A stretch of 64,000 bases of DNA from Bdellovibrionota bacterium (GTDB lineage Bacteria; Bdellovibrionota_C; UBA2361; OMII01), in contig JBILFA010000005.1 of the NCBI GenBank assembly GCA_044351795.1, forward strand, positions 351 to 64,350, given 5' to 3'. This document shows, one piece after another, positions 14,567 through 31,575 of the stretch. The notes under the pieces were generated by a model. That model was not told the DNA's origin, ran no database searches, and saw only the letters and a program-made list of their open reading frames with translations. The position numbers were made by a program, and so were the translations under genes. The stretch's first letter is position 1. Each line of letters opens with the position of its first letter.

Positions 14567-15580
14567 ATGCACGAAGCAGATATCCGCGACTCAGCCTCCC
14601 TCGAAAGATCCATAAAGGACTTTCAAACCTCCTTCCTGAAGATAGAACAGGAGGTCGGCAAAGCTATCGTCGGTATGCAGGACGTCGTGAGAGGAACGCT
14701 CTCGGCTATCTGTGCAAGGGGACACGTTCTCCTGGAGGGAGTTCCCGGTCTCGGGAAGACCTCCCTGGTCAAATCGATATCTCAGGCCCTCGGGCTGACC
14801 TTCAAGCGCGTTCAGTTCACCCCCGATCTCATGCCTTCGGATGTGACCGGTACTCAGATCCTCACGGAAGACGAGCATGGAGGGCGCCGTTTCGTATTCA
14901 AGGAGGGCCCAATCTTCGCCAACATCGTTCTCGCTGATGAGATAAACCGAGCCACGGCGAAAACACAGTCTTCGCTGCTCGAAGCGATGGAGGAGCGTCA
15001 AGTAACGGTGCTCGACCAGACCCATCTGTTGCCGAAGCCTTTCTTCGTGCTCGCCACTCAGAATCCGATCGAGCTCGAAGGTACATACCCACTACCGGAA
15101 GCACAGCTCGATCGATTCCTCTTCAAGCTCATCGTCTCGCCTCCTACCTCACAGGAGCTCAAAGATATTCTATCCCGCACAACGGGCGCGACCGTGCACG
15201 AAGTCACACCCGTATTTCCTGCCGATCAGGCCCAGGCCTACATCCTAGCGATGCAAAACATCGTCCGCCACGTGGTGGTCTCTGATCCGATGCAAGAGGT
15301 AATCGTGCGAGTTATCGCCGCCCTGACCCCGAGCTCTCCGTTTGCAACACCCAAAGTGAAGCAGTACCTACGCTTCGGCCCAGGACCTCGCGGAGCTCAA
15401 GCTGTCGTGCTCGCGGCCAAGGTCGCCGCTCTTCTCGATGGCAGGATTAATCTCTCCTTTGAGGATATACGCGGAGTCATTAAACCGGCTCTGCGCCATC
15501 GTCTGATAGTAAACTTCCAGGCAGAGGCTGACGCGATCAGCGCAGATGATCTGATCGAGGAGGTGCGTAACGCCAAGTAA
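14567..15580 (+). CDS. MoxR-family AAA+ ATPase
   Basis: 337 aa with Walker A LLEGVPGLGKT, Walker B VLADEINRA and ATQNPIELEGTYPLPEAQLDRF. Confidence 0.92.
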   Translation: MHEADIRDSASLERSIKDFQTSFLKIEQEVGKAIVGMQDVVRGTLSAICARGHVLLEGVPGLGKTSLVKSISQALGLTFKRVQFTPDLMPSDVTGTQILTEDEHGGRRFVFKEGPIFANIVLADEINRATAKTQSSLLEAMEERQVTVLDQTHLLPKPFFVLATQNPIELEGTYPLPEAQLDRFLFKLIVSPPTSQELKDILSRTTGATVHEVTPVFPADQAQAYILAMQNIVRHVVVSDPMQEVIVRVIAALTPSSPFATPKVKQYLRFGPGPRGAQAVVLAAKVAALLDGRINLSFEDIRGVIKPALRHRLIVNFQAEADAISADDLIEEVRNAK

Positions 15581-15591
15581 GGTGATCTCCG

Positions 15592-16482
15592 ATGCTCATA
15601 GATGCCGACACCTTACGTATCCTCAACGCCTTTGCTCTCCGGACTCGCCGCTCTTTTTTCGGAATGCGCCAAGGGGCTCACAGATCCCCTCGACGCGGCC
15701 ACGGCGTAGAGTTCGCCGAATATCGAAAATACGAGATCGGGGACAATCCGAGATACATCGACTGGAACCTCTTCGCGCGCAGCGACAAGCTCTACATACG
15801 TCGATACCTGCAGGAGGAAAGCGTTTCTCTCTTCATCATTATCGACGGCTCTCGCTCTCTGACGCATCCAGCTCTGAGGAGCAAATGGGACCTCGCAACC
15901 TTACTTGCGGCTTTTACCTCCTACATCGCCCTTTCTGCGCAAGATCCTGTCACTATCTCTGTACTGGGCGGGGCGCACAGCTCAATCTTCTGGGGCGGAA
16001 AAGCTTTTAATTCCGTCAAGAACTTCCTTCAGCAATCGACCGACTCTCTCGTGCACGACTCTCCGCTCACTATCGACGTCGTCGAGGCATCGCGTCGTCT
16101 TGCTACGCGTGTTCAATTCCCAGGCGTGTGTGTCTTCATCTCTGACTTTTTGTACCCGCTCGATACCGTAGCCGAAGCGCTCGGCGCATTTCGCGCACGC
16201 AACATGGAGGTCCATGCGATTCAGCTCCTTGGTCGTTCAGATATCGAGCCCGACCCCGGCTCACCCGGTGCGACCTTAACCGACAGCGAAACAGGAGAGC
16301 AGCTTGGACTCTCTCTCGATCCAGAATCCCGCGCGAGATATACAGAGCTGCTTCAGCAGCACATAGATGCAGTTCGAAACCACTGTTTATCGCGCCAAAT
16401 TAAATTCGTCTCGATGGAGGTTCGAGAGCCGTTGACCGAATGCGGGATCGAAACCCTTACCAACATGAGTCTGTTCCTATGA
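15592..16482 (+). CDS. DUF58 domain protein (MoxR partner)
   Basis: 296 aa. GHGVEFAEYRKYEIGDNPRYIDW is the diagnostic DUF58 motif. It lies directly downstream of the MoxR gene. Confidence 0.85.
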   Translation: MLIDADTLRILNAFALRTRRSFFGMRQGAHRSPRRGHGVEFAEYRKYEIGDNPRYIDWNLFARSDKLYIRRYLQEESVSLFIIIDGSRSLTHPALRSKWDLATLLAAFTSYIALSAQDPVTISVLGGAHSSIFWGGKAFNSVKNFLQQSTDSLVHDSPLTIDVVEASRRLATRVQFPGVCVFISDFLYPLDTVAEALGAFRARNMEVHAIQLLGRSDIEPDPGSPGATLTDSETGEQLGLSLDPESRARYTELLQQHIDAVRNHCLSRQIKFVSMEVREPLTECGIETLTNMSLFL

Positions 16483-18353
16483 TATCGCTCTTCGGCACGA
16501 CTCTAGGCTCAACTGCGCCTTGGCTCCTCCTCGGGGTACCGATTGCAACCGCGTTGCTGGTGTATGTATACCGAAACCTCGGGACCTCTCAGCACGCGGT
16601 CGTATCAACCCTCCTCTTTCTCCGCGAGCTACCCCAACGCCCTACCAGCAGGAAGAGGTTCATCCCACCCTTTCAGTTCTGGATTGAACTTACCGCTCTC
16701 TCGCTTCTCTCCTTGGCAGGAGCCGGTGTCTTCCTCTCCAACACAGGCCGCAAGATAGCGATCGTTATCGATCGCTCTCTCAGCATGGAGGCTCCCGGCA
16801 GCGACGGCACACGCCGTATAGACGCTGCGAAACGACTCGCTATCGCCGACATAACGCAGAGCCTGCCGACCACCCGATTCTCACTCTTCTCGGCTCAATC
16901 TAATTTAAAGCCTCTCTCTTCCGAAAAGCTTACTGCGGGGGAGGCCGCCTCGCTCATCTCTCCTCTGACCACCGTGCCAGCCGAAGATCGCCTGCAGCTA
17001 CACCTTCCTCAACTTGTAGGGAGTGGAGAGTACGATTCAGTGTGGGTGTACACCGATCGCTCTCTGGGAGCCGCTACAGTGACGCCCTCCGTACGGGTCG
17101 TTTCCGTGGCCGACAGTAGCGCCTCACGTCCTTTGGGAAACGTGTGGATGCGAGGCATCTCCACTAAAAAGATCGAGGGTCGCACCTTCCTGTCGGTATC
17201 CCTGGAACAGATCGGTGCAGCAAGCCTTCCTATTACGATCTCGGCTACCTGCTACGAAGCGAACGGCGCTAGCGGCTCCAGCAGATCCCGCATGGTGCCC
17301 GACACGACCGTAGAAGCGCCCAACGGGGTATCGACCACGACACAACTCGGCCCTTTGGATTTCCCGTGGTCCTACTGCCGGGCTCACGCGGTCTCCAACT
17401 CTCCAGGTACAACAGACCTGATCACTAATGACAATGATGCATGGATTACCTCGGATGCCGTCGCCTCTACCGTGGCACTCATCAGCCCACTCTCGCCCGA
17501 GCAGCTCAAGATCGAACGAATCGGCGGCTTCTCGGTTGTCGCAAGCAGTCCTACTCCTGCACAAGAGCGCAGTGTTCAATCGCCGATTATAGTTCACCGT
17601 TCTCCGGCCCCAAAAGAGCCGCAATCCTCAACCTTACTCGTCTTTCCTCCAGTGGGACCACTACCGTGGGGAGGGGCTGTCCGCGAGTCGGAGAATCGGC
17701 CGCTCCAGATATCACGCTGGAATAACGCTCATCCTGTGATGACCTATGTCAATCCGACTCTACTCAACCTTCAAGCGACGCGCGTGATTGAGTGCCCACC
17801 CTCAGCCACATCGATCCTCACAACCACGATCGGCACAGTGGCCTGTGTCGGCGAGCACCAAGGCGCTCGTTATGCCGTTATGGGCTTTGAGATATTCCCC
17901 TTCGATGGATCCAAAACCCCGACCTTGAGCATCCTCACCTTAAACCTCTTCAAGTGGCTCTTCGAGGCGCAGACCTCTTCGCAAAAAATTGTGCCGTTTG
18001 ACACCTTGGCACTGCCCCGTGGTGTGACCGAGGCGAGCTATCTGGCACCCGGTAGCAACACACTCGCTGTTTCGGAGCGTAGCACCATCACTCCTGAAAC
18101 GCCGGGAGTTATCCGACTCTCCGATGCAACCAGTGGGGTTTCTTTCATGAAGGCTGTGAACCTCCTCTCGGATCAGGAATCCAATCTTGCCGAGAATGCT
18201 CCGATTAGTTTGAGCTTTTCAGATCGGCCCTCCGTGAACTCATCCAAGGAGTCTTTCGACATCGCGCCGTGGCTCGCGACGCTCGCGGTACTCGTATTGC
18301 TTTTCGACCTGATCCGCCGAATCGCCCGTGTCACTCGATGGAGCCGATCATGA
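16479..18353 (+). CDS. BatA-like membrane protein with N-terminal aerotolerance-regulator-type anchor and VWA-like MIDAS segment
   Basis: The ATG at 16479 overlaps the upstream stop (ATGA). It has an N-terminal anchor (PWLLLGVPIATALLVYVY), a DxSxS-type motif (IVIDRSLSM) and a C-terminal TM helix. Confidence 0.7.
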   Translation: MISLFGTTLGSTAPWLLLGVPIATALLVYVYRNLGTSQHAVVSTLLFLRELPQRPTSRKRFIPPFQFWIELTALSLLSLAGAGVFLSNTGRKIAIVIDRSLSMEAPGSDGTRRIDAAKRLAIADITQSLPTTRFSLFSAQSNLKPLSSEKLTAGEAASLISPLTTVPAEDRLQLHLPQLVGSGEYDSVWVYTDRSLGAATVTPSVRVVSVADSSASRPLGNVWMRGISTKKIEGRTFLSVSLEQIGAASLPITISATCYEANGASGSSRSRMVPDTTVEAPNGVSTTTQLGPLDFPWSYCRAHAVSNSPGTTDLITNDNDAWITSDAVASTVALISPLSPEQLKIERIGGFSVVASSPTPAQERSVQSPIIVHRSPAPKEPQSSTLLVFPPVGPLPWGGAVRESENRPLQISRWNNAHPVMTYVNPTLLNLQATRVIECPPSATSILTTTIGTVACVGEHQGARYAVMGFEIFPFDGSKTPTLSILTLNLFKWLFEAQTSSQKIVPFDTLALPRGVTEASYLAPGSNTLAVSERSTITPETPGVIRLSDATSGVSFMKAVNLLSDQESNLAENAPISLSFSDRPSVNSSKESFDIAPWLATLAVLVLLFDLIRRIARVTRWSRS

Positions 18354-20914
18354 ACTTCGAACATCCCGGCCTGCTCTATCTGATCATCCTCACTGGAGCT
18401 CTCGTGCTGATGACCTTCCGGCACCGAGGTAGCCGCACACTCTCTGCATTCACAATCGCAACGGCCCGATTTCTTGCATTAGCTACAGCCGTGATAGCCC
18501 TCGCCGGACCATATACGACGACGGAGCGCCCTGCGGAGAGCCTCCTTGCCCTGATCGACACCTCGGCGAGCGTCTCTGAAACGATGGGGGAAGAGCTTCT
18601 GCGGCGGGCTTCTGCTCTCAGTAAAGAGGTTGGGGTGCCGCTGAAAGTCCTCCCGTTCGCCAAAACGGTAGCTCCGGTCGCTGTTGCTCTCGAGAGCACA
18701 TCGTATCAGACGCTCCGTTCTGCATGGGAGAAGCTCGACAGTGGTGCAACCAACATCGAGCTTGCACTCACCACTGTACCGAGCAGCGATGGGGCCGTGT
18801 CGCTTCTTCTCTCAGATGGATATGAAACCATCGGTAGTGTAGTGCCGCACCTCTCGTCTATGTCCACAGCTCGTATATACCCACTGGCAGTAGGTGGAGG
18901 AGCAGAGGACGAAGCGATCACCATCTCCCATCTCCATACGCCGCTCACGGTTAAGGCCCAAAAGAGCGCTGAGATACGCACGACCCTCACCAACTCGCAG
19001 TCGACACCCCGAAACGGGACTTTGACCATAAAGCACGGAGATAAGAGCGTTCTCTCAAAGTCGATTAGCGTGCCTCCCGGGCAGGATCTCACCGTCTTAG
19101 CCCAAAGCGATCCTTCTCTCGAAGGACTGAACCCAATCACAGCGACATTCGCCTGGAGCGATAGCGGTGGGGCGCATTCAATTTCAAGGGCAGGTTGGCT
19201 CTCCGGCGAGAAACGAGACAAGGTGCTCCTTCTTTCGGGCTCTCCCGATGACGAGCGCTATCTCCCGCAGATCTTGAACAGCCAAGCCTATCAACTTCGG
19301 ACGCAGAACACATCGAGCAACCTCTCATCTCTCGGCAAGCCCGAGGATTACCGCGTCATCATTCTCAATAACATTCCCCGTTCAGCTGTACCGAGCACTT
19401 TTCTGGACGCAGTACCTTCCGCAGTGCGAGGCGGCGCAAGTTTCGTCATGATCGGCGGCAACAAAAGCTTCGGATTGGGCGGCTACATCGACACCTCGAT
19501 TGAATCGATCTTGCCCGTTAAGCTCGTCCCTCCACATACCGAAAAGAAACGGCTCAACATCGCCGTGCAATTAGTTATCGACAAATCGCGCAGCATGGCC
19601 GCCGAAAGCAAGCTCGACTTCGCTAAAAGTGCGAGCAACCAGGTACTCGAATCTCTCAAGGACGAAGACTATCTCGGTATAATCGGTTTTGATGAGTTCC
19701 CATTCCTCGCCTTACCACTCTCTCCCGTGGGACAATCTCGTAGCATCGCTCGAGACCGTATCGGCCGTCTCTTTCCCCGTAGTAAGACCAACCTCTTTCC
19801 CGCCTTGGACGAAGCTCGCAACGGTTTGATGCGTGTGAACGCAGGGCGCAAGCACGCTATCGTACTCACAGATGGCAAGCTTCCCGATGCCGGTGAGTAT
19901 TATTTCGAGTTACTACGTCAGATGCGCGGCGTAGGTATCACGGTTTCTACCGTCCTGATTGGAAGTGACGATGATCAAGGATTCCTCGCTCAGATGGCAC
20001 AACGCGGTGGAGGCTCATACTACCAAACCAACGATCCATCCAATCTCCCAAAGATATTCCTCTCTGATGTGAAGGTAGCCTCCGGTGAGCAAACCCTCAA
20101 GGAGACCTCTGAACTGTACGTGAGTCCAGGGCCGAGCGGTATAATCAGCACATCACTCTCGAGCTTCCCCTCTCTGCGGGGTTTCGTGCAGACGCTCGCG
20201 CGCGATAGTGCAAACACCGAACTAATCATCGCCGAGGACGACAAAGCCTACCCCTTGCTTGCAACATGGGAGGTCGGCCAAGGGCGCGCCGTTGCCTTTA
20301 CCTCTGACGCCAACGGTCGCTGGTCGTCGAATTGGATGCGATGGCAGAGCATTAACGAGTTCTGGTCCGACATCCTGGAATCAAGCCTCCCGAAAGGTGC
20401 CGGTACGAGCTCCAGTATTCCGTTCGACGCGCGCTCGTGGCTCGATGGAGGAGATCTCGTGATCGACCTCACGATCTATCAAGACACCGGCTCATCCCGT
20501 ATCTCCGGCTCCATTCTCACTCCGATGGGAGATGACCGTATCCTGAATTTCCAAAGTTTGAGCCCCGGCCACTATCAGGCGAGACTGGACCGACCTACCG
20601 CGGGCACCTACAAAGCTACTGTCCGAGTAGGAGACGCGACTCTTCCCACTGTCGCATGGACACTCTCAGGTGAGCTTTTCGGCGAACAGCCGCGCCGGCG
20701 ACCTAATACCCCGCTACTCGAACAGATCGCCTCGCAAACCGGCGGCAAAGTTAATCCTTCCGCCGAGGATCTCAAGAGTAGTATCAGCGTGCTCTCTGAC
20801 AAAGAAGGCAAACAGCCGCTCTTTCTGCTGATAGCTTTAGCTCTCTTGTTCGCGGAGATACTCGTGCGCGAGTTCGGTCGATATCTTTGGTTTTCGAAGT
20901 CCAGGGCTGGATAG
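18350..20914 (+). CDS. VWA domain-containing membrane protein (BatB/large Bat-like)
   Basis: The ATG at 18350 overlaps the upstream stop (ATGA). It has N-terminal TM helices, a MIDAS motif (LVIDKSRSM), HAIVLTDG and a C-terminal TM helix (LFLLIALALLFAEILV). Confidence 0.75.
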   Translation: MNFEHPGLLYLIILTGALVLMTFRHRGSRTLSAFTIATARFLALATAVIALAGPYTTTERPAESLLALIDTSASVSETMGEELLRRASALSKEVGVPLKVLPFAKTVAPVAVALESTSYQTLRSAWEKLDSGATNIELALTTVPSSDGAVSLLLSDGYETIGSVVPHLSSMSTARIYPLAVGGGAEDEAITISHLHTPLTVKAQKSAEIRTTLTNSQSTPRNGTLTIKHGDKSVLSKSISVPPGQDLTVLAQSDPSLEGLNPITATFAWSDSGGAHSISRAGWLSGEKRDKVLLLSGSPDDERYLPQILNSQAYQLRTQNTSSNLSSLGKPEDYRVIILNNIPRSAVPSTFLDAVPSAVRGGASFVMIGGNKSFGLGGYIDTSIESILPVKLVPPHTEKKRLNIAVQLVIDKSRSMAAESKLDFAKSASNQVLESLKDEDYLGIIGFDEFPFLALPLSPVGQSRSIARDRIGRLFPRSKTNLFPALDEARNGLMRVNAGRKHAIVLTDGKLPDAGEYYFELLRQMRGVGITVSTVLIGSDDDQGFLAQMAQRGGGSYYQTNDPSNLPKIFLSDVKVASGEQTLKETSELYVSPGPSGIISTSLSSFPSLRGFVQTLARDSANTELIIAEDDKAYPLLATWEVGQGRAVAFTSDANGRWSSNWMRWQSINEFWSDILESSLPKGAGTSSSIPFDARSWLDGGDLVIDLTIYQDTGSSRISGSILTPMGDDRILNFQSLSPGHYQARLDRPTAGTYKATVRVGDATLPTVAWTLSGELFGEQPRRRPNTPLLEQIASQTGGKVNPSAEDLKSSISVLSDKEGKQPLFLLIALALLFAEILVREFGRYLWFSKSRAG

Positions 20915-21070: not shown

Positions 21071-22300
21071 TCAGAGCGCCGATAACGGTATGTGTAGCAC
21101 ATTAGGTGTCAACCAGAAGCAATCCTCCTGCGCCGAGATAACTACGCCGGGGCCTTTTGCCCCATGGATCTGAAGGAACCGCTGAATACCTTGAGCGTCC
21201 GCTGCAGAAGGCTGTCCAGTCAATTTGCACTCGATTGGGATCGTCATGTCTGAGGTTAGCTCAACTACGAAATCAACCTCATCGCGCTCACCAGAGCGCC
21301 AGTGATACACAGGCGGTCGAATCCCTTCGCGACTAAGCAGCGCAAACAGGGCGTGTGCACAAAGAGTTTCAAAGGCCGCGCCAAAAGAGGGAGACTCACG
21401 CGCCAAGTCACTTGCGCGAAAGCCAAGGAGATGTAGTAGCAGCCCACTATCACACAGGATCAATTTAGGTCGCTTAACCTCGCGCTTGGTTACTTGCCGC
21501 GAATATCCCGGAATTCGGCGTATCACGAAAGCCGCCTCGAGCACCGACAGCCAATCGTGAATCGTACCCTGAGGTATACCTGAATCGCGAGCCAATGCTT
21601 CTACGTTTAACAATCGCGCAGATGTATTAGCCACGAAACGCAAGAACCTTTCAAAGCGCCCGAGATCCGATATCTCGGCCAGGTCGCGCAGATCTCGAGT
21701 TAGGAATGTTTGAATATAATCGCTTAGACGTTGAGCTACCGTGGCATCATCAGGGCTGTGCTCAGCAAGCACCATGCGCGGAAATCCACCTCTAAACACC
21801 ATATCTGCTGGCGGGAGCGGCCACGGGAAGCGACGACCGACCGGTGGGCTTTGCAACCACTCTGCGAGTGAGTTCGGAGTCTGTTCATCGGCACGGAGCT
21901 CGCTGGGAGTCATACCTGAAAGCTCCAAGATCCCAACTCTGCCAGCTAGCGACTCGGACACCTCCTTCATCATCTGTAGGGGCTGCGAACCGGTGAGGAT
22001 GATCTCGCCCCGCCCAGGATTATTTTGGTCAATAAGATCTTTAAGCTCCAGAAAGAGCTCCGGCACTCGCTGAACCTCGTCAAAGATGCAGGGGGGCGGA
22101 TGATTGCGTAGGAACAGCGCTGGGTCGCTTCTAGCTTCAGAGACAATTCCTGCCCGGTCGAGCAGAACCCACTCGTGCCCCGGGAAGGAGTGTCGCACCA
22201 GTTCGGTCTTGCCCACCTGGCGAATACCGGTCACCAGAACGCAGCTATACATCCCTGCAAGTCCGCGCAGCCTAGGCTCTAGAGTTCGCTTGTAGTACAT
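21071..22300 (-). CDS. AAA-family ATP-binding protein with DUF4143-type C-terminal domain
   Basis: 409 aa with a P-loop-like VLVTGIRQVGKT. The overall layout matches stand-alone AAA+/DUF4143 proteins. Confidence 0.8.
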   Translation of the reverse strand: MYYKRTLEPRLRGLAGMYSCVLVTGIRQVGKTELVRHSFPGHEWVLLDRAGIVSEARSDPALFLRNHPPPCIFDEVQRVPELFLELKDLIDQNNPGRGEIILTGSQPLQMMKEVSESLAGRVGILELSGMTPSELRADEQTPNSLAEWLQSPPVGRRFPWPLPPADMVFRGGFPRMVLAEHSPDDATVAQRLSDYIQTFLTRDLRDLAEISDLGRFERFLRFVANTSARLLNVEALARDSGIPQGTIHDWLSVLEAAFVIRRIPGYSRQVTKREVKRPKLILCDSGLLLHLLGFRASDLARESPSFGAAFETLCAHALFALLSREGIRPPVYHWRSGERDEVDFVVELTSDMTIPIECKLTGQPSAADAQGIQRFLQIHGAKGPGVVISAQEDCFWLTPNVLHIPLSAL

Positions 22301-23520: not shown

Positions 23521-24303
23521 TTATGTTGTTTCTACCTCTTCAATATATAAATGAGCACTATAATTTCCATCATTAATCTCACAGGAGCTAAGGGAACTAC
23601 CTCGATATCCAATCCCAATACTATGCACACCAGCTGCCAAGCCAGAAATTACTCCCGTCACGGTTGCAGGATGAGAAGTTGTTGCATTAGCCTCAAAGGT
23701 TCCAAAAGTAGCAGTTCCCCCACCGGCTGAACTAAAGCTTGGCAAAACTACTCCATCCAGGCTTCTTGAATTTACCAAAAGTGAAATATCACAAAAGCCT
23801 GAATTTGTGCTGTCATTTACAAGAGTAACATGCGAACTAAGGGTCAATTTAAGTTTGCTGGTACTTGAGATTTTAGTATAATTGCCGACACTTCGAAGAA
23901 GGCGATGACCAAAATCAAAGATTGTTCCTGTGGAGCTTTCACCAAAAATTAAGGCTGTTAAATTAAGCGAACTCGTCCCTCGAGCGCCTTGCGGTCCTGC
24001 AGCTCCCTGTAGTCCTGCAGCTCCCTGTAGTCCTGCAGCTCCCTGTAGTCCTGCAGCTCCCGCAGTCCCCGTGGCCCCCGTGGCCCCCGTGGCCCCCGTG
24101 GCCCCCGCCGGGCCTGCAAACGTTGCACTATTGGCAATTAGGGAAAAGCCCTTAGGACATTTTTCTCCAATTACCTGCTTTGATGATAGCGAAAGTTTAC
24201 CATTCTTGTTCAGGATCTTAGTACAAATAAGATCAGCACTAGCTGTATCAATAAAACAGGGCAGTATGCCCAAACAAAATAAGATTTTTGCAAAATATTT
24301 CAT
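23521..24303 (-). CDS. Secreted collagen-like triple-helix repeat protein with globular C-terminal domain (BclA-like organisation, tentative)
   Basis: 260 aa with a signal peptide (MKYFAKILFCLGILPCFIDTASA) and 15 uninterrupted G-X-Y triplets (GPAGATGATGATGATGTAGAAGLQGAAGLQ...GPQGARG). A ~150-aa Ser/Thr/Gly-rich domain follows. Confidence 0.8.
   Translation of the reverse strand: MKYFAKILFCLGILPCFIDTASADLICTKILNKNGKLSLSSKQVIGEKCPKGFSLIANSATFAGPAGATGATGATGATGTAGAAGLQGAAGLQGAAGLQGAAGPQGARGTSSLNLTALIFGESSTGTIFDFGHRLLRSVGNYTKISSTSKLKLTLSSHVTLVNDSTNSGFCDISLLVNSRSLDGVVLPSFSSAGGGTATFGTFEANATTSHPATVTGVISGLAAGVHSIGIGYRGSSLSSCEINDGNYSAHLYIEEVETT
23995..24108. repeat. Tandem DNA repeats inside the collagen-like gene (18-bp unit x ~3.5, then 9-bp unit x ~4)
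   Basis: tcctgcagctccctgtag is repeated head-to-tail from 23995. Then ccccgtggc is repeated from about 24067. Confidence 0.9.
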
Positions 24304-24582: not shown

Positions 24583-24722
24583 TCCCACATACTTGACCCC
24601 AGTTTTGGCTAGGTCGATCCCACATAACCGACTCCAGTTTAGGGGGGTCGGATCCCACATAGATGAACCCAGTTAGAGGGGGGTAAATCCCACATAACTG
24701 AACCCACTTTTAGGGGAGAAAG
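24583..24722 (+). repeat. Four head-to-tail 35-bp direct repeats (TCCCACATA-N9-12-CC(A/C)(G/C)TTT-AGGGG...)
   Basis: Units start at 24583, 24618, 24653 and 24688, each beginning TCCCACATA. The period is exactly 35 bp, and the array ends at the IS256 terminus. Confidence 0.9.
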
Positions 24723-26152
24723 ATTAAGCAACCTTCTTTCTGTAAATTGCAAAAGTATCGTCATTAGCCATAGTTGATTTCTGTCGTTGTCCCATGTGGA
24801 CGTAAGGCATCTTGAGCTGCAGCCAGTCCTCGTGAATCTCGATGAGGAGCGCTGAGACGAGCCGTAGGCAGGAAGCGGAGTTGGGGAAGATGGTTGCCAC
24901 CCGAGTTCGCCGCTTGATCTCCCGATTCACAAGCTCCAGCCCGTTAACCGTTCGTAGCTTTCGATGAAAGTCACGCGGCAGTGCATAGATTGCAAAGCAC
25001 TCCTCAATGTTCTCCTCGAGGAATCGGCACCACTCGGGAGCGGTCTTGTGGTAGCTCTCGATAGTGGCACGGAGTCTTTGGCGGGCTTCTTCCTTGGTAA
25101 CGCAGCTGAAGATGTCCCTGAGCGCCTGTCCGAGCTCCTCTCGCAGGTGTCGCTTGGGGATGTAACTCTGTGCGTTCTGTGCGAAATGAAATTGGCAGCG
25201 CTGCCAGGGAACGTTGGGAAAGATAGCTTTGCGCGCAGCCTTCATCCCGGCGTGATCGTCACTGACGACAAGCTCTACCCCGTGCAGACCGCGCTGAGTG
25301 AGTGATTGCAAGAACTCTCGCCAATGAACCTCGGCTTCCGAAAAGGAGGTTGAGACACCCAGTACCTCTCGCTGTCCTTTGAGGTTAATCCCTATGGCGA
25401 TGAGCACTGCATGATCGATGACCTCGTCGTTATGACGAACGCTCTCGTATCGTGCGTCGAGCAAGATGTACGGAAAGCACCCGAGCTGACGGGTTCGGAA
25501 CTTCTCGAGCTCGTCATCCAAGACCTTCGAGACCCTGGATACCTGGGTAGAAGATATGTCGAGCCCGCAAAGAACCTCGGTTATCTCGGTGACCCTCCTT
25601 GTAGAGACCCCATTTACGTACATTTCGGCTATCGCAAGCTTTAGCGCTCGTTCCGACCGGATTCCCTTCTCAAGGCTCTGAGGATAAAACGAAAGCCCGC
25701 GAACCTGCGGAATCTCCACCGTAATAGCCCCCATTCGGGTCTGTATGGTCTTAGGTTTGAACCCGTTGGCGTATCCAGTGCGATCAGGCGTGCGCTCATA
25801 CAGGTCCGCCCCAAGCGCCTCCGCCCGTTCCACCTTCATCGCTTCATTGAGAAGCTTTTGGAACACTTCCCGCATCGAATCAGTACCGTTCGATGTTACT
25901 AGTTTCAAAAGCTTCAGGCATCAGCGTATCGTTTCCTTTAGTCGAGGTCATCGTAAGCTCCTTCATCAGAGTTGATTTGTTGCAAATCAACGATGACCTC
26001 GACTTACTTTTCGTTCCGGAAATCCTCAGTCAGCGCCAAATTTACGCTCCCCGAGCTCCGCCGCGCTTCGCTTCGCGGGGGCTTTTGATTGCCCCCCGCT
26101 CAGCGCGGCTCCTTACCAATTCCGGAATTTACAGAAAGGATGGTGCACTATC
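24722..26152 (-). mobile_element. IS256-family insertion sequence (~1.43 kb)
   Basis: Imperfect terminal inverted repeats are centred on ctttctgtaaatt (24736-24748) and aatttacagaaag (26126-26138). They enclose a Mutator-type transposase gene. I saw no matching target-site duplication. Confidence 0.75.
24724..25908 (-). CDS. IS256-family (Mutator-type) transposase
   Basis: 394 aa. YILLDARYESVR, AIGINLKGQREVLG, LVVSDDHAGMK and WQRCQFHF are typical of IS256-family DDE transposases. Confidence 0.92.
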   Translation of the reverse strand: MKLVTSNGTDSMREVFQKLLNEAMKVERAEALGADLYERTPDRTGYANGFKPKTIQTRMGAITVEIPQVRGLSFYPQSLEKGIRSERALKLAIAEMYVNGVSTRRVTEITEVLCGLDISSTQVSRVSKVLDDELEKFRTRQLGCFPYILLDARYESVRHNDEVIDHAVLIAIGINLKGQREVLGVSTSFSEAEVHWREFLQSLTQRGLHGVELVVSDDHAGMKAARKAIFPNVPWQRCQFHFAQNAQSYIPKRHLREELGQALRDIFSCVTKEEARQRLRATIESYHKTAPEWCRFLEENIEECFAIYALPRDFHRKLRTVNGLELVNREIKRRTRVATIFPNSASCLRLVSALLIEIHEDWLQLKMPYVHMGQRQKSTMANDDTFAIYRKKVA

Positions 26153-26214
26153 AAAGGCGCTCCTATCGGAAACCTCACCTCTCAGATATTCACCAACATT
26201 TATCTAAATGATTT
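26152..26214 (+). repeat. 63-bp exact duplicate of an internal segment of the DGR reverse transcriptase gene
   Basis: 26152-26214 is identical to 28852-28914, which encodes KGAPIGNLTSQIFTNIYLND. It lies immediately next to the IS256 right end. Confidence 0.9.
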
Positions 26215-26453
26215 GCACTGTAGCGGGGCTACCTTTTCACGCGGAAGGTCGCAAGCAATGATCCGTCTTAGGTGAATTCTGTCAGAAACACTCGGTTTCT
26301 GAAGTGTCATGTACCAAGCCCCAGCCACCCCATCCCGTCCGATCCCGACAGGTGCAGACAAGCGCATTAGCAGCTTTTTTGCTTAGCGCACAGGCACTTG
26401 GTACCCTTTCATTCCAGCGGACTAACTAAGAAAACTTAGAAAGAGCATAGGCT

Positions 26454-27131
26454 ATGATCAGCAATAATACTTCTCCTGTGGCGGGAAACTTTGATACCTC
26501 TTCTGGCTCTACCAATCTTGGCACCTCGACTTACGGAGTGGGGGTTACTGGCGTAGAGGACTGGACGAGCGTTTCTTTCCCAGTACCGCAAGCTACCGCT
26601 GCTCTCCCCGAGGGGACCATCAGCGAGCAGGTAGTAAGCAACCAAGGGTCGGGTCAAGCGATTAGCACAACCCACGGCTTTAAGCAGGGCAGAGCCCCCG
26701 ACGACACAGCTGCTATCGAGGTAAAGATTACAAGACCTAACGGGGAAGAAGTAACATGCCTACTCTCTGAAGGAGCTAAGGGTAAGGTGTACAGTCAGCT
26801 CGCGACCTATGGAAAAAAAGATCTCAAAGGAGCAACCCTCCTCACACACGATGACTTTAAGGCCGTGGTAGACAGTCTCTATAGCGCAATTAAGGGCTAC
26901 ACAGCGGTTAAGGACGCTCTCCAAACAGAAGATCAAGCTCTTCAACAAGCATATATAATAGTGACAGAAGGTGTGCGCAGGGCCGGAGGTTTCTCGTGGG
27001 CCAAATTCGATTTGGATAGCGGGGGTGCCGTTGTTGGTCGGCGCGTTAATGACCACGACCTCTACTGGCGCGACGGCAACACTCGCTTCTGTTGCGCTGC
27101 GTTTGTCTCCCCGCCTGCGGAATCAAAATAA
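26454..27131 (+). CDS. DGR variable (target) protein, small, VR at extreme C-terminus
   Basis: 225-aa ORF. The last 35 codons are the VR, and the reading frame puts every TR/VR difference in the first two positions of AAC/AAT template codons. Confidence 0.8.
   Translation: MISNNTSPVAGNFDTSSGSTNLGTSTYGVGVTGVEDWTSVSFPVPQATAALPEGTISEQVVSNQGSGQAISTTHGFKQGRAPDDTAAIEVKITRPNGEEVTCLLSEGAKGKVYSQLATYGKKDLKGATLLTHDDFKAVVDSLYSAIKGYTAVKDALQTEDQALQQAYIIVTEGVRRAGGFSWAKFDLDSGGAVVGRRVNDHDLYWRDGNTRFCCAAFVSPPAESK
27018..27122 (+). repeat. DGR variable repeat (VR)
   Basis: 105 bp aligning without gaps to 27593-27697. There are 13 mismatches, all where the other copy has A. Confidence 0.92.
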
Positions 27132-27227
27132 TTTGATCGTTGATCATTGGTTTCTTGATCCCCTCCGCAAGGAGGGGTTGGGGCCATTGATCATTGGTAC
27201 TTTGATCGAAAAATTTTCTACTTTAGC
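27126..27227 (+). repeat. Post-VR module: GC hairpin (27160-27177) flanked by five TTGATC motifs; copy 1
   Basis: The hairpin is cccctcc-gcaa-ggagggg. TTGATC occurs 5 times in about 80 bp. The module is roughly 90% identical by eye to 31475-31575. Confidence 0.85.
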
Positions 27228-27368
27228 CGCTTCCACTGGTCTGCTACCCTTTGAGTTACCTTGGGTAATGACAAGGCGGCTAAGGCTTCCGTGCACCTAA
27301 GGGCTGTTCCCACAGTAACGTCAGTAGGAGAAATCCGCTGTAACTGCCAGAGTCGTTGCGTCCCGATG

Positions 27369-27392
27369 AGAGGCGGCGTAGCCGCCTCTTTT
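27369..27392 (+). terminator. Rho-independent terminator candidate downstream of DGR target gene
   Basis: agaggcggc-gta-gccgcctct forms a 9-bp GC-rich stem followed by TTT. Confidence 0.6.
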
Positions 27393-27592
27393 AGATTCAA
27401 CGAGCGTGCAGAACTGTGATGGGAGCAGCAATTCTTGTCCAAGTCTCGTGAGGGGATCTTGTTGGTTGGTATCGGATGATACCAAGGTCGAAAAGCGTAG
27501 CTAACGGCACCGCAACCCCTCCGAATTAAATTCAACCGTGAGAACCGTGTAAGCGCTCAAATGGTGGTGGGTCCGTAAGGGCTTGGGCAAAG

Positions 27593-27697
27593 AGCGGGGG
27601 TGCCGTTGTTGGTCGGCGCGTTAATGACAACGACAACAACTGGAACGACAACAACAATCGCAACAATTGCGCTGCGTTTGTCTCCCCGCCTGCGGAA
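27593..27697 (+). repeat. DGR template repeat (TR)
   Basis: This is the invariant, Asn-codon-rich copy (..aat gac aac gac aac aac tgg aac gac aac aac aat cgc aac aat tgc..). It is not part of a credible ORF. Confidence 0.92.
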
Positions 27698-27773
27698 CTG
27701 CTGTCTCCCCCTTTTTTACCTCTGCCGAACGCTCTTTATCCACCCTCCAAGCATCCGCCTTCGCCCTTCGGGG

Positions 27774-28100
27774 CTACTGCGGACAGGTCCGTCCTATCTC
27801 ATCGAGCCGTTCTTGGAGCGAGACGACCTTCTTCAATGGAAGGACCTTTATATCGACTGCAAGTCGGATAAACATCCGCAGCATATCAACCTCTGCGGCA
27901 AGACGAGTCAAATTCTGCGCTCTCTGCTCACACGGGAGGTATCCCGCATGAACAAATCCCTCTAACATCTGAAGGGCGGTCGCCTCAACACGGCGCCAGA
28001 GGCTGTACCGCTCCATCTTGGGTATGCCTTTTTGTAGGTCGTGTAAGGCCCGGTAGAGCTCATACGTTTTGGCGATGATGGGAATGTCTAATTGCTGCAT
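27774..28100 (-). CDS. avd: DGR accessory variability determinant (Avd-like four-helix-bundle protein)
   Basis: 108 aa from the ATG at 28100. MQQLDIPIIAKTYELYRALHDLQKGIPKMERYSLWRRVEATAL...LDEIGR fits the Avd / 23S-IVS four-helix-bundle pattern (PKxERYxL). The listed longer ORF (to 28208) has an unlikely Arg/Ser-rich extension. Confidence 0.75.
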   Translation of the reverse strand: MQQLDIPIIAKTYELYRALHDLQKGIPKMERYSLWRRVEATALQMLEGFVHAGYLPCEQRAQNLTRLAAEVDMLRMFIRLAVDIKVLPLKKVVSLQERLDEIGRTCPQ

Positions 28101-28133
28101 AGTCCTCCTTCTGTGACGGTTTCGACTAGAAAT

Positions 28134-28303
28134 GGTCTCCAAAGTAGCTCCGTCGCGAGGGCAACGAGATGAGGAGCGAAACGAGGAAAGCGAGCGAAAA
28201 AACCGCAAGTGTATCCCCTGAGATACAGTGAGGATTTTTTCGTGAAGCTTGACGAAGTTGCAGCCCCATCTCGTTGCCCGCAGTAGGAGATACTTTGGAG
28301 ACC
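28134..28303. other. 170-bp bipartite inverted repeat (two perfect 13-bp helices) in the avd-RT intergenic region
   Basis: 28134-28146 pairs with 28291-28303. 28159-28171 pairs with 28267-28279. Together they enclose a ~95-nt purine-rich loop. Confidence 0.8.
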
Positions 28304-28324
28304 AGTTCGAATATATTCGACGAA

Positions 28325-29353
28325 ATGATCTCTCCCGAGCGCCTTTTTGAGGCGTGGTACGAGTTTAGGAAAGGGAAGGGGAACCGCTGCGACGTTCAAG
28401 AGTTTGGTCGGCACGCAGAAAAGCACATCTTTCGACTGCATCGTGACCTTGCTTCAGGAACGTATCGGCACTCTCCGTACGAGTCGTTCTTTGTGCACGA
28501 TCCAAAGAGGCGACACATCAGAAAAGCCTGTGTGCGCGATCGTCTCGTACACCATACGCTCCACATGACCCTACGCCACATCTATGAGCCACGGCTTTAT
28601 AGCGGTGTCTATTCCAATCGTATCGGCAAGGGTACTCACCGGGCGGTAAATGCGTTGCAGCGTGCAGTTTGGAAGGTGAGCAAAAACCTCACACACCCCT
28701 GCTGGGCGCTAAAATGCGATATCAAGCGCTTTTATGACTCAGTAGACCACGAGATCCTAAAAGAGACCCTGGCTAGGGTGATTCATGATGACCGAGCGCT
28801 TCTTCTCTTAGAGCACGTTATCGATAGCTTTCACGTAGAAGGTTCCGTTGGCAAAGGCGCTCCTATCGGAAACCTCACCTCTCAGATATTCACCAACATT
28901 TATCTAAATGATTTTGACCAGCACGTTAAACACGTGCTTCGAGTAAAGCACTATCTCCGGTTTGCTGACGATTGCCTCTTCATTGCCCCTCATCGACAGG
29001 AGTTAGAGGAGCTGCTACCGAAGATTGAAGAGTTTTTAGCCCTACGGCTGAAGCTTGCGCTTCACCCTGACAAGGTAAGCATACGGCCCCTAAATCACGG
29101 TATCGACTTCTTAGGTATCGTGGTGCATCCATTTCGCCGCACGCTCAGAACAACAACCAAGCGCAGGATGCTTCGAAAGTTGACCGAAAGGCACGGGGAG
29201 GCGTTTAGAGGAGAGATTGATTCAGACTCACTTCATCAGTCGCTTCAGTCGTATCTTGGGATTTTGTCACATGTTGATGGGCATGGGCTCTCCACACTTC
29301 TTAAAAACGGCTTCTTTCTGTTCTCTCCATACCGAGGTGGTATTGTCTCGTGA
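28325..29353 (+). CDS. DGR-type reverse transcriptase
   Basis: 342 aa from the ATG at 28325 (the listed ORF starts at TTG 28274). It has the IGNLTSQIFTNIYLNDFD motif characteristic of DGR RTs, an FADD catalytic box and N-terminal LFEAWYEFRKGK. Confidence 0.92.
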   Translation: MISPERLFEAWYEFRKGKGNRCDVQEFGRHAEKHIFRLHRDLASGTYRHSPYESFFVHDPKRRHIRKACVRDRLVHHTLHMTLRHIYEPRLYSGVYSNRIGKGTHRAVNALQRAVWKVSKNLTHPCWALKCDIKRFYDSVDHEILKETLARVIHDDRALLLLEHVIDSFHVEGSVGKGAPIGNLTSQIFTNIYLNDFDQHVKHVLRVKHYLRFADDCLFIAPHRQELEELLPKIEEFLALRLKLALHPDKVSIRPLNHGIDFLGIVVHPFRRTLRTTTKRRMLRKLTERHGEAFRGEIDSDSLHQSLQSYLGILSHVDGHGLSTLLKNGFFLFSPYRGGIVS

Positions 29354-29422: not shown

Positions 29423-29770
29423 ATGGAAGTTCTCCGAAAAGCTTTAAAGATCTATCAGCGCGAAAACGGAGATCTCCCTTTCGTGAGATGGATGAGGGGG
29501 CTGCGAGATGTCCGAGGAAAGCAAGCGATCGAGGCACGGCTTGCTCGTGTTCGTTTGGGAAACCTTGGAGACCATCGCCCGGTCGGGGATGGTGTCACGG
29601 AGCTGCGGTTCTTTATTGGTCCAGGCTACCGTGTCTACATCGGCCTCGAAGGCGATACCGTTGTGATCCTCCTTTGTGGTGGTGATAAAGGCTCTCAGGA
29701 TGGCGACATCGAAACGGCGAAAGCATTTTGGAAAGATTACCAGAGGAGCAAAGCGTATGAAAACGGTTGA
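29423..29770 (+). CDS. Type II toxin, HigB/RelE-superfamily addiction-module killer protein
   Basis: 115 aa. RLGNLGDHRPVGDGVTELRFFIGPGYRVYIGLEGDTVVILLCGGDKGSQDGDIETAK matches the addiction-module killer family pattern. Confidence 0.85.
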   Translation: MEVLRKALKIYQRENGDLPFVRWMRGLRDVRGKQAIEARLARVRLGNLGDHRPVGDGVTELRFFIGPGYRVYIGLEGDTVVILLCGGDKGSQDGDIETAKAFWKDYQRSKAYENG

Positions 29771-30062
29771 TTACGATGAGTATCTAATCGCAGAACTTAA
29801 AGATCTTGAATATGCAGCCGGTTACTTAACGGCCTGCCTCGAAGAAGGTGCAGATGTGTTTCTGGAAGGAATTAGAAACGTCGCCCTAGCTCAAGGCGGG
29901 ATGAAGGCTCTCTCCGATGCCACTCGACTCAATCGTGAAAACCTCTATGACATGCTCTCAAAGGAGGGCAATCCACGTCTCTCAAGCCTCACTACGATTC
30001 TCTCTCAACTAGGTATGGAGGTATCGTTCAAGCCAAAGATGCAGGGAACGGATGCGGCTTGA
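29757..30062 (+). CDS. Type II antitoxin, HigA-family addiction-module antidote (HTH)
   Basis: 101 aa from the ATG at 29757, overlapping the toxin stop by 14 nt. YDEYLIAELKDLEYAAGYLTACLEEG...NRENLYDMLSKEGNPRLSSLTTILSQLGMEVSFKPK matches the antidote family. Confidence 0.85.
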   Translation: MKTVDYDEYLIAELKDLEYAAGYLTACLEEGADVFLEGIRNVALAQGGMKALSDATRLNRENLYDMLSKEGNPRLSSLTTILSQLGMEVSFKPKMQGTDAA

Positions 30063-30171
30063 ACAGGATAGTGGCGGTAGCTGTCGCCTGCTGTAGCGGT
30101 TTTCCTGAGCGCCTGTTGAGGTCTTGGATGGCTTCATTCAGTCTGATCGTATCTTAGAAGTAAGGCCTACC

Positions 30172-30630
30172 ATGAGTAACTTTGACGATTTCAAGGATAT
30201 GCCCGAAGATCGATTCAGCCGCTCCGCCATCCTGCTTCAAGTGATTGATGGGGACACGCTCGATGTTGAGCTCGATCTTGGATGGTCGATGAGGCTCAAG
30301 GAGCGGGTTCGTCTCGAGCGAGTCGATACCCCCGAAATAAAGCGAAAGGAAGAGTGCGATGCTGCTATCTGGGTAAAGGAAGAAGTAGAAAAATTACTCA
30401 AGCCAGGAGCACCTCTGGTCATCACCTCCATGGCTTACGACCGAACAGGTCAAGTGCGTGGAAAGTTTGGAAGAACGATGGCCGTCGTGTATCGGGCAGA
30501 AGATGGTCTTTGCATCAACAGGTATCTTATTGAACAAAAGATCGCCTGGATTACAAATGAACGTGGGAAACTCCTTCAAGACCGCGACCTGTCTCTACTT
30601 ATAGGGATACCACTAGCTCGTAGACCTTAG
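30172..30630 (+). CDS. Thermonuclease (SNase-like) family protein
   Basis: VIDGDTLDVELD...RVRLERVDTPE is the staphylococcal-nuclease-type motif. I prefer the ATG at 30172 over the listed TTG at 30124. Confidence 0.7.
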   Translation: MSNFDDFKDMPEDRFSRSAILLQVIDGDTLDVELDLGWSMRLKERVRLERVDTPEIKRKEECDAAIWVKEEVEKLLKPGAPLVITSMAYDRTGQVRGKFGRTMAVVYRAEDGLCINRYLIEQKIAWITNERGKLLQDRDLSLLIGIPLARRP

Positions 30631-31440: not shown

Positions 31441-31575
31441 TGTTGCTGCGTCTGGCTCTCCCTCCCCGGAATTAAAATAATTTGATCCTTGGGTCTTGGT
31501 TTCTTGATCCCCTCTGAAGGAGGGGTTGGGTCCATTGATCATTGGTCCTTTGATCGAAAAATTTTCTACTTTAGC
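31441..31575 (+). repeat. Second copy of the VR-tail plus post-VR hairpin/TTGATC module, without an intact upstream ORF
   Basis: 31475-31575 is about 90% identical to 27126-27227. 31441-31474 is a diverged match to the last ~35 nt of the VR. The hairpin is kept with a C-G to U.G change. Confidence 0.85.

Follow-up and report, generated by a model that had tools for sequence, protein, structure and literature searches.

The 64,000-nucleotide stretch of contig JBILFA010000005.1 analysed here (hereafter, the window, at its full length) comes from a Bdellovibrionota bacterium (assembly GCA_044351795.1) and carries a diversity-generating retroelement (DGR), whose target gene, encoding a small variable protein, is the subject of this report. 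The window contains ordinary chromosomal genes and has a GC content of 53.6%. The target gene and the rest of the DGR cassette are made up of the following features.

26454-27131, + strand: DGR target (variable protein) gene, a complete open reading frame (ORF) of 225 aa with stops in frame upstream, natural variants that differ in the variable repeat only, and 35 homologue clusters of like length
26454-26669, + strand: lineage-specific N-terminal tail (residues 1-72), rich in S, T, G and N, predicted to be disordered, without a hydrophobic segment
26670-27128, + strand: conserved alpha/beta domain of 155 residues (residues 73-225), as seen in family alignments and the AlphaFold model, with the variable repeat at its C-terminal end
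27018-27122, + strand: variable repeat (VR), a 105-nt repeat of the template repeat (TR) with 13 mismatches
27048-27092, + strand: hypervariable codons 199-213, 13 of them variable, with W205 and R211 invariant
27093-27122, + strand: invariant, GC-rich 3' end of the VR, similar to an initiation of mutagenic homing (IMH) site; it encodes CAAFVSPPAE, of which CAAFV is the last predicted strand
27132-27592, + strand: non-coding VR-TR spacer of 460 nt, 85-90% identical in the related loci L004 and L006
27160-27177, + strand: GC-rich hairpin CCCCTCC-GCAA-GGAGGGG downstream of the VR, a candidate target-recognition cruciform of the DGR
27593-27697, + strand: TR, with 26 adenines, 23 of them within the 13 variable codons
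27774-28100, - strand: accessory gene avd, 108 aa, located between the TR and the reverse transcriptase gene in reverse orientation, matching Pfam bAvd and NCBIfam DivGenRetAVD
28274-29353, + strand: DGR reverse transcriptase (RT), with a TTG start at 28274 for the ORF and a likely start at the ATG at 28325; RVT_1 match at 5.4e-20

All 13 mismatches between the VR and the TR lie at TR adenines, and none falls on another base over the 105 nt, a pattern far beyond chance. The two repeats are identical up to 27122 and 27697, respectively, and diverge beyond these positions; a further TR-like copy occurs on neither strand of the 64-kb window. The first-pass annotation of this DNA had read the TR-encoded peptide, GGAVVGRRVNDNDNNWNDNNNRNNCAAFVSPP, correctly. 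The TR holds ten AAY codons (AAT, AAC seven times, AAT and AAT, at residues 199, 201, 203, 204, 206, 208, 209, 210, 212 and 213) and not the nine counted there, together with three GAC codons at residues 200, 202 and 207. Recounted as 15^10 x 4^3, the repertoire comes to about 3.7e13 proteins, and the earlier figure of 3.8e10 was too low.

The target's 90% cluster contains three sequences, P0001, P0036 and P0037, each recorded on a contig of its own. Residues 1-198 and 214-225 are the same in all of them, and the only differences fall at the 13 adenine-bearing codons (199-204, 206-210, 212 and 213), every one of which varies; W205 (TGG) and R211 (CGC) are fixed in all three. Since these natural variants differ at templated adenine codons alone, diversification is ongoing: the DGR is real and active, and the C-terminal tip of its target is being rewritten. 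The related loci L004 and L006 have adenine-specific TR/VR pairs of their own.

The other parts of the cassette are those of a DGR. The RT is 30% identical to Brt of the Bordetella phage, up to 36% identical to other phage DGR RTs, 92% identical to the RT of L006 and 92-93% to that of L012. It contains the motif IGNLTSQ, and (I/L)GxxxSQ is a hallmark of DGR RTs. Avd matches Pfam bAvd at 52 bits (cut-off 40) and NCBIfam DivGenRetAVD at 69.8 bits, which is under the cut-off of 80. A 23-nt inverted repeat (28129-28151 and 28286-28308) surrounds the region from which avd and the RT gene start divergently. The 50-nt stretch around the GC-rich hairpin is predicted to fold at -22.4 kcal/mol; the same hairpin is present after the second VR (VR2) of L006 and in a relic at 31445-31575, and its intact left arm and loop are visible in L005. 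By analogy with BPP-1 and Legionella DGRs (PMC5758913), the hairpin may function in target recognition, and the invariant 3' end of the VR may act as the IMH, as in BPP-1 (PMC5758913). The VR-TR spacer (27132-27592) has repeated TTGATC/TGATCATTGG motifs around the hairpin, and a search of this spacer against Rfam for structured RNA gave no match. It could hold the promoter of the TR-RNA and/or a (structured) 5' part of that RNA.

If the established DGR pathway applies, the TR would be transcribed on the + strand, the RT together with the divergently encoded Avd would copy it into cDNA with misincorporation opposite adenines, and the cDNA would replace the VR, with the GC-rich, invariant 3' end and the hairpin behind it serving as anchors. 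The outcome would be the rewriting of 13 codons (10 AAY and 3 GAC, giving the roughly 3.7e13 proteins above), while W205, R211 and the final CAAFV strand would stay unchanged.

The target belongs to a small unannotated family. An exhaustive scan of 1.84 billion representative proteins with a hidden Markov model (HMM) found only 43 relatives, and a word-indexed search gave 35 homologue clusters of 166-249 aa (33 of them within 185-231 aa); a second, broader profile search for distant or fused relatives added nothing. Every member with a source name is labelled 'hypothetical protein', none has a Pfam domain, and the family has no match in NCBIfam, PADLOC or the PDB sequences. The first-pass annotation had suggested an undescribed target family, and the small number of HMM relatives, their uniform label and the missing database matches, together with the missing structural neighbour described below, agree with it. 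Four genome loci bear the family, three of which are labelled Bdellovibrionota metagenome-assembled genomes (MAGs); the hosts, where named, are freshwater Bdellovibrionota MAGs.

In the family alignment, a shared domain of 155 residues (H74 to the C-terminus) follows a variable region of about 65 residues, and hypervariable columns are found in the VR only. In most members, the N-terminal 65 or so residues form a conserved region (M.QQLS..A..AL...LAA.IA), and the window copy has an unrelated tail in its place. Residues 1-68 of this tail have a predicted local distance difference test score (pLDDT) below 50 in the AlphaFold model, nothing similar to residues 1-72 was found in any fetched locus, and DNA homology with the other target loci (L001-L006) begins at 26671, at codon 73/74. 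The gene itself is intact: in-frame stop codons lie immediately 5' of its ATG (26454), and the ORF runs without frameshifts to 27131 on the + strand. In another sample, the contig L092 (1.9 kb) matches positions 25945-27852 of the window at 100% identity.

The missing hydrophobic N-terminal signal reported in the first-pass annotation was also borne out. The highest 15-residue Kyte-Doolittle mean is 0.65 (residues 1-59 scanned), and a hydropathy scan found no hydrophobic, signal-like or transmembrane N-terminal segment in any family member; the absence of a signal peptide was judged by hydropathy and composition only. The question had been raised whether homologues elsewhere are longer or carry secretion signals; nearly all are 185-231 aa and none has a hydrophobic N-terminus. 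The longer relatives (571, 476 and 755 aa) are rare fusions. One of them, P0045 (571 aa), carries a Ser/Thr kinase at its N-terminus, in front of the family domain; the best matches of this kinase are the defence kinases PD-T4-6 and MAD6, and it has no predicted membrane segment.

The RT places the cassette in a larger lineage. A metagenome scan with the window RT gave 80 relatives (L012-L091) of 42-93% identity. The order TR, avd, RT holds in 41 related loci, and avd is reversed in all 63 loci having an Avd match. With avd always in reverse orientation between the TR and the RT gene, a TR transcript reaching towards the RT gene would run antisense through avd. Adenine-specific TR/VR pairs are present in 46 related loci, with the VR 365-650 nt 5' of the TR in nearly all of them. 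The median length of the 28 complete targets of the lineage is 240 aa, and none of them has a hydrophobic N-terminus; no Pfam domain was found in the nine representatives scanned, and two representatives compared with PDB sequences had no significant match. The window family shows no detectable kinship with other targets of the lineage.

RTs at least 88% identical to the window RT serve three targets, namely the window family (as in L006, VR at about 14318, minus strand), a 187-aa type (L012:2119-2682) and an unrelated 258-aa type (L014:1191-1964). The 187-aa type is 29% identical and ends in GALFVRASAESK, and all three types end in a similar IMH-encoded tail. In the family member P0017, the C-terminal extension is the beginning of a gene of the 187-aa type, a hint of targets in tandem.

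With the target upstream, followed by the TR, a reversed avd and the RT gene, the window cassette has the order of architecture B3, that is, TR-(avd)-RT, which accounts for 90% of the candidate phyla radiation (CPR) set in Wu et al. 2018 (PMC5758913). Where named, the hosts are not CPR or DPANN, three of the four family genome loci being labelled Bdellovibrionota MAGs. Small targets in CPR and archaeal DGRs have already been noted (PMC5758913, PMC8144416), and these targets are without membrane or other domains (Roux et al., PMC8144416). The description of the target as atypical is therefore right when it is set against the textbook type of formylglycine-generating enzyme (FGE) and Mtd targets, but not within the TR-(avd)-RT lineage, where small targets without hydrophobic N-termini are the rule. 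The target is a new family within a known category.

The fold of the conserved domain was predicted with AlphaFold, using the family alignment, and a second run covered domain residues 69-225 only. The full-length run gave a pLDDT above 90 over residues 70-225; the domain-only run gave a pLDDT of 91, a predicted template modelling (TM) score (pTM) of 0.88 and the same secondary structure. The model has strands at 76-80, 86-93 and 99-105, followed by helices at 113-123, 132-146 and 161-172 with short strands between them. Its C-terminal part consists of a hairpin (179-187/192-201), a loop with a one-turn helix and a last strand at 214-218, whose sequence comes from the invariant 3' end of the VR. 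The variable codons occupy the end of strand 192-201 and the loop, and they stop just short of strand 214-218. In the model, this layout of variable sites appears to follow the same design logic as the binding sites of DGR targets with a C-type lectin (CLec) fold, though no CLec similarity was detected.

Comparison with known structures gave no neighbour. The best Foldseek match among 350,542 PDB chains had E=0.08 and TM 0.26, and the best in BFVD had E=0.06 and TM 0.24. Profile searches of the family against PDB sequences were empty, and none of the 35 members matched FGE-sulfatase or DUF1566 in Pfam at E<=10. In hhalign, the family reached a probability of 0.3% with Mtd and 0.3-2% with an FGE-type DGR-target profile built from phage loci, in inconsistent segments. 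The Pfam and hhalign results agree with the first-pass annotation that the VR has no FGE-type resemblance, and a match to a described DGR target family, which would have spoken against a new one, came from neither profile searches nor hhalign nor Foldseek. Membership in the FGE-type, DUF1566 or Mtd families was rejected, as there was no match at permissive thresholds. An alignment of a CLec alpha1-beta-alpha2 segment (SQLATYGKKDLKGATLLTHDDFKAV on FGE-type EQAKAACAAKGGTWHLMTTAEWAGL) was seen twice and was set aside as noise when a third profile chose another segment. Hints of an oligonucleotide/oligosaccharide-binding (OB) fold at residues 74-150 (26673-26903) were all insignificant (Pfam BRCA2 OB2 at E 0.054 in four members, PDB RPA32 at E 1.4 and Foldseek PrgE at E 0.08). 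An immunoglobulin (Ig)-like target would be all-beta; the model is mixed alpha/beta with three long helices, and the family has no Pfam or Foldseek match to Ig domains.

It is quite possible, if somewhat short of probable, that the domain is a very divergent, compact CLec fold that sequence methods and Foldseek do not recognise. The CLec fold of AvpA from Nanoarchaeota was likewise unrecognised before its crystal structure (PMC5006420), and all annotatable VRs were CLec in the survey of Roux et al. (PMC8144416). The VR design, with the invariant aromatic W205 at its centre, variation starting at a strand end and the invariant IMH-encoded last strand CAAFV at the C-terminus, is like that of AvpA, Mtd and TvpA (PMC5006420). 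Over the C-terminal 120 residues, the predicted elements follow an order (strand, helix, short strand, helix, strand, [helix], strand, strand, strand) that is compatible with the beta1-alpha1-alpha2-beta2-beta3-beta4-beta5 of a compact CLec core. It is important to note that the FGE-type profile against Mtd, a true CLec pair that served as positive control for hhalign, scored a probability of only 1.6%, so that the profile negatives carry little weight against a CLec fold. On the other side, a model with a pLDDT of 91 found no better structural match than those given above, and Mtd (1yu0) and TaqVP (5vf4), whose sequences are present in the PDB sequence copy searched, are absent among the 50 best Foldseek matches listed. 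The sequence features of CLec targets (FGE-sulfatase, DUF1566, Mtd or the CLec1-3 VR frame) are missing, that of FGE-sulfatase and DUF1566 even at the permissive threshold, and the top hhalign segment against the FGE-type shifts with the profile used, so that the signal is not reproducible.

A more doubtful reading is that the domain is a new scaffold for DGR hypervariation, neither CLec nor Ig. The confident and reproducible model without a neighbour in the PDB chains or BFVD argues for it, as does the absence of a sequence or profile link to Mtd, to FGE-type targets and to 17 other target clusters of the RT lineage. In addition, the service of three target types by RTs at least 88% identical points to a lineage that readily adopts new scaffolds. 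However, the evidence that favours a divergent CLec fold weighs against this reading, and Foldseek may miss a core of 60-70 residues within a domain of 155; the structure comparison covered the PDB and BFVD. As a speculation that we would not put higher than the new scaffold itself, the 155-residue domain might be a third structural solution for hypervariation, serving within the cell as a stand-alone programmable binder; in one relative it would be the sensing part of a defence-type Ser/Thr kinase.

Among known systems, the closest are AvpA and the small DGR proteins of Nanoarchaeota and CPR (PMC5006420; B3 and 'UVR' classes in PMC5758913; clades 2 and 5 in PMC8144416). Like the window target, these are single small domains of about 200-260 aa without a signal peptide, membrane segment or other recognisable domain; their VR of about 27-35 residues has 12-13 variable codons, mostly AAY, with a central invariant aromatic and a last strand from an invariant IMH-like end; and they share the TR-(avd)-RT order with a reversed avd and a fold that cannot be predicted from sequence. 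They differ in several respects. The window family has no detectable sequence or profile similarity to the targets of the 46 related loci, and its hosts, where named, are Bdellovibrionota MAGs rather than CPR or DPANN. In AvpA, 46 residues follow the VR, whereas the VR of the window target lies at the very C-terminus, and AvpA has a solved CLec fold, while the window model has no Foldseek match to PDB chains.

Mtd of BPP-1 and the FGE-type (CLec1) targets TvpA and TaqVP share with the window target a C-terminal, TR-templated and AAY-rich VR, adenine-only mutagenesis, an invariant aromatic and last strand, the combination of Avd and RT, and a GC-rich hairpin after the VR. In contrast, the window target has no FGE-sulfatase or Mtd match (hhalign <=2%) and no Foldseek match, its domain is half the size, and its VR lacks the GGxW...GFR frame; the window avd is on the other strand after the TR, and the window DGR is not phage-borne. 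A third group comprises the cytoplasmic sensors in which a diversified domain is fused to kinase, STAND or MoxR-vWA modules (Thiohalocapsa PB-PSB1, PMC10907252; cyanobacteria, PMC7517822). The likeness lies in the predicted intracellular location, in the kinase fusion of P0045 and in the island around the window DGR, which contains a PADLOC candidate ATPase and a toxin-antitoxin pair. Unlike the window-family domain, which stands alone in nearly all members and is unrecognisable as CLec, the diversified domain of these sensors is recognisably CLec and usually part of a large multidomain protein.

The surroundings of the cassette bear on both the history and the possible role of the target. Three further features belong here.

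24724-25908, - strand: IS256/Mutator-family transposase (Transposase_mut, 1.3e-105), part of an insertion element abutting the apparent scar in the next line
26152-26214, + strand: 63-nt exact copy (100% identical) of an internal piece of the RT gene (28852-28914), an apparent rearrangement scar 5' of the target
31445-31575, + strand: apparent relic of the 3' end of a second target with its hairpin, 87% identical to 27096-27227

The inverted repeats of the IS256 element lie at 24728-24748 and 26126-26146, and the 63-nt RT scrap abuts the right end of the element (24724-26150). The scrap looks like the scar of a rearrangement mediated by the insertion sequence (IS) and involving a DGR copy. As the first 72 codons are unrelated to those of other members, and the IS256 element and the RT scrap adjoin them, the 5' end of the target is remodelled, not truncated: a scar lies beside a whole domain. 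The sequence at 31445-31575 corresponds to the final 36 nt of the target and the GC hairpin behind them. Its coding tail reads AASGSPSPELK* and matches the C-terminus of the 258-aa DGR target at L014:1191-1964, where the RT is 89% identical to the window RT. This sequence looks like what is left of a second type of target, or like an orphan homing site.

The DGR lies inside a 10-kb island with housekeeping operons on both sides. The island holds a PDC-S01-matching ATPase, transposase remnants, the IS256 element, a HigB/A-like pair and an SNase-like gene. The ATPase (AAA_14/DUF4143, 21071-22300, - strand) matches the PADLOC candidate defence system PDC-S01 at 9e-96, and three PDC-S01-matching AAA_14/DUF4143 ATPases also lie near the target in L001 (2888-4114, 4688-5824 and 9804-10985). 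Directly 3' of the RT gene, at 29423-30630, are the HigB-like gene (no Pfam match) with its HI1420-type antidote and the SNase-like nuclease gene. Further 5', a gene on the - strand (23521-24303) encodes a protein of 260 aa whose N-terminus is hydrophobic and which contains collagen-like triplets (GAT/GLQ) in repeated form; it is followed at 24583-24716, beside the IS element, by three tandem copies of a 35-nt unit (TCCCACATA...). A MoxR (AAA_3)-DUF58-BatA-vWA operon lies at 14567-20914, 5.5 kb 5' of the DGR, with mobile-element debris between them. MoxR/vWA-associated DGR targets are on record (PMC10907252); the link of this operon to the DGR is probably coincidental. A phage origin was rejected: the family has no relatives in IMG/VR viral contigs, and the neighbours of the target are an IS element, a toxin-antitoxin pair, an ATPase and metabolic genes. 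The target locus lies neither in a phage or prophage nor beside tail genes, where a phage receptor-binding or tail-fibre protein would be encoded.

Taken together, we consider that the target is a complete, functional variable protein of an active chromosomal DGR and, with reasonable though limited confidence, a cytoplasmic programmable binder or sensor. Because of the kinase fusion, the missing export signals and the island context, its most likely role would be that of an intracellular ligand-binding or sensor protein, plausibly in conflict with phages or other invaders, and a role as a surface adhesin or phage tail protein is unlikely. In P0045, the same domain is joined to a Ser/Thr kinase like PD-T4-6 and MAD6, and the ATPase with the PDC-S01 match (9e-96), the HigB/A-like pair and the SNase-like gene share the island with the target. 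Cytoplasmic DGR 'antigen sensors', including kinase-linked targets, are also on record (PMC10907252, PMC7517822). Several points weigh against this reading. Signal peptides were judged absent by hydropathy only, and the protein might be exported non-classically. The kinase fusion is known from one representative, on a contig of 2.4 kb; its VR looks degenerate, and its diversification may have ceased. Apart from the DGR parts and the multi-copy ATPases, the loci share no conserved gene next to the target, and hence no partner points to a pathway; the PDC-S01-like ATPases are multi-copy in these genomes, and their linkage may be coincidental. The structural model, for its part, was built on a shallow alignment (21-35 sequences, effective number of sequences about 2-4).

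The target might instead be exported or displayed on the surface without a Sec signal, as a variable adhesin, for example in the recognition of prey or particles by a predator. Membrane-anchored binders make up the majority of cellular DGR targets (PMC8144416), the hosts are Bdellovibrionota MAGs, and the conserved N-terminal region of about 65 residues in most members could be a targeting or docking module. This is nevertheless improbable, given that no member has a signal-like or transmembrane segment, that the window copy has swapped this N-terminal region for a disordered tail while diversification continues, that one homologue is fused to a kinase domain without a predicted membrane segment, and that no secretion-system genes are linked to the target.

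That the ORF is what 5' truncation or decay has left of a longer gene, an option the first-pass annotation had left standing and to which the 72 codons unique to the window lineage, the adjoining IS256 element and 63-nt scrap, and the few longer relatives (571, 476 and 755 aa) might point, is very improbable, for the family norm is about 205-225 aa (33 of 35 homologue clusters at 185-231 aa), the 155-residue domain is complete, no frameshift interrupts the gene, longer relatives are fusions and rare, and residues 1-198 and 214-225 are identical in three independent sequences of a gene whose VR keeps changing.

The cytoplasmic binder or sensor proposed here is of interest beyond its own locus. 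To our knowledge, every DGR variable protein solved so far has a C-type lectin fold. In the survey of Roux et al., all annotatable VRs map to CLec (PMC8144416). An actively diversified and confidently modelled target without detectable CLec similarity is a concrete candidate with which the universality of the CLec fold among DGR targets can be tested. As a small, soluble-looking single domain of 155 residues with natural variants in hand, it lends itself to crystallography and could serve as a compact scaffold for binders. Finally, the RT lineage occurs in genomes labelled Bdellovibrionota MAGs, and the association of its near-identical RTs with three target types means that these cassettes readily take on new targets.

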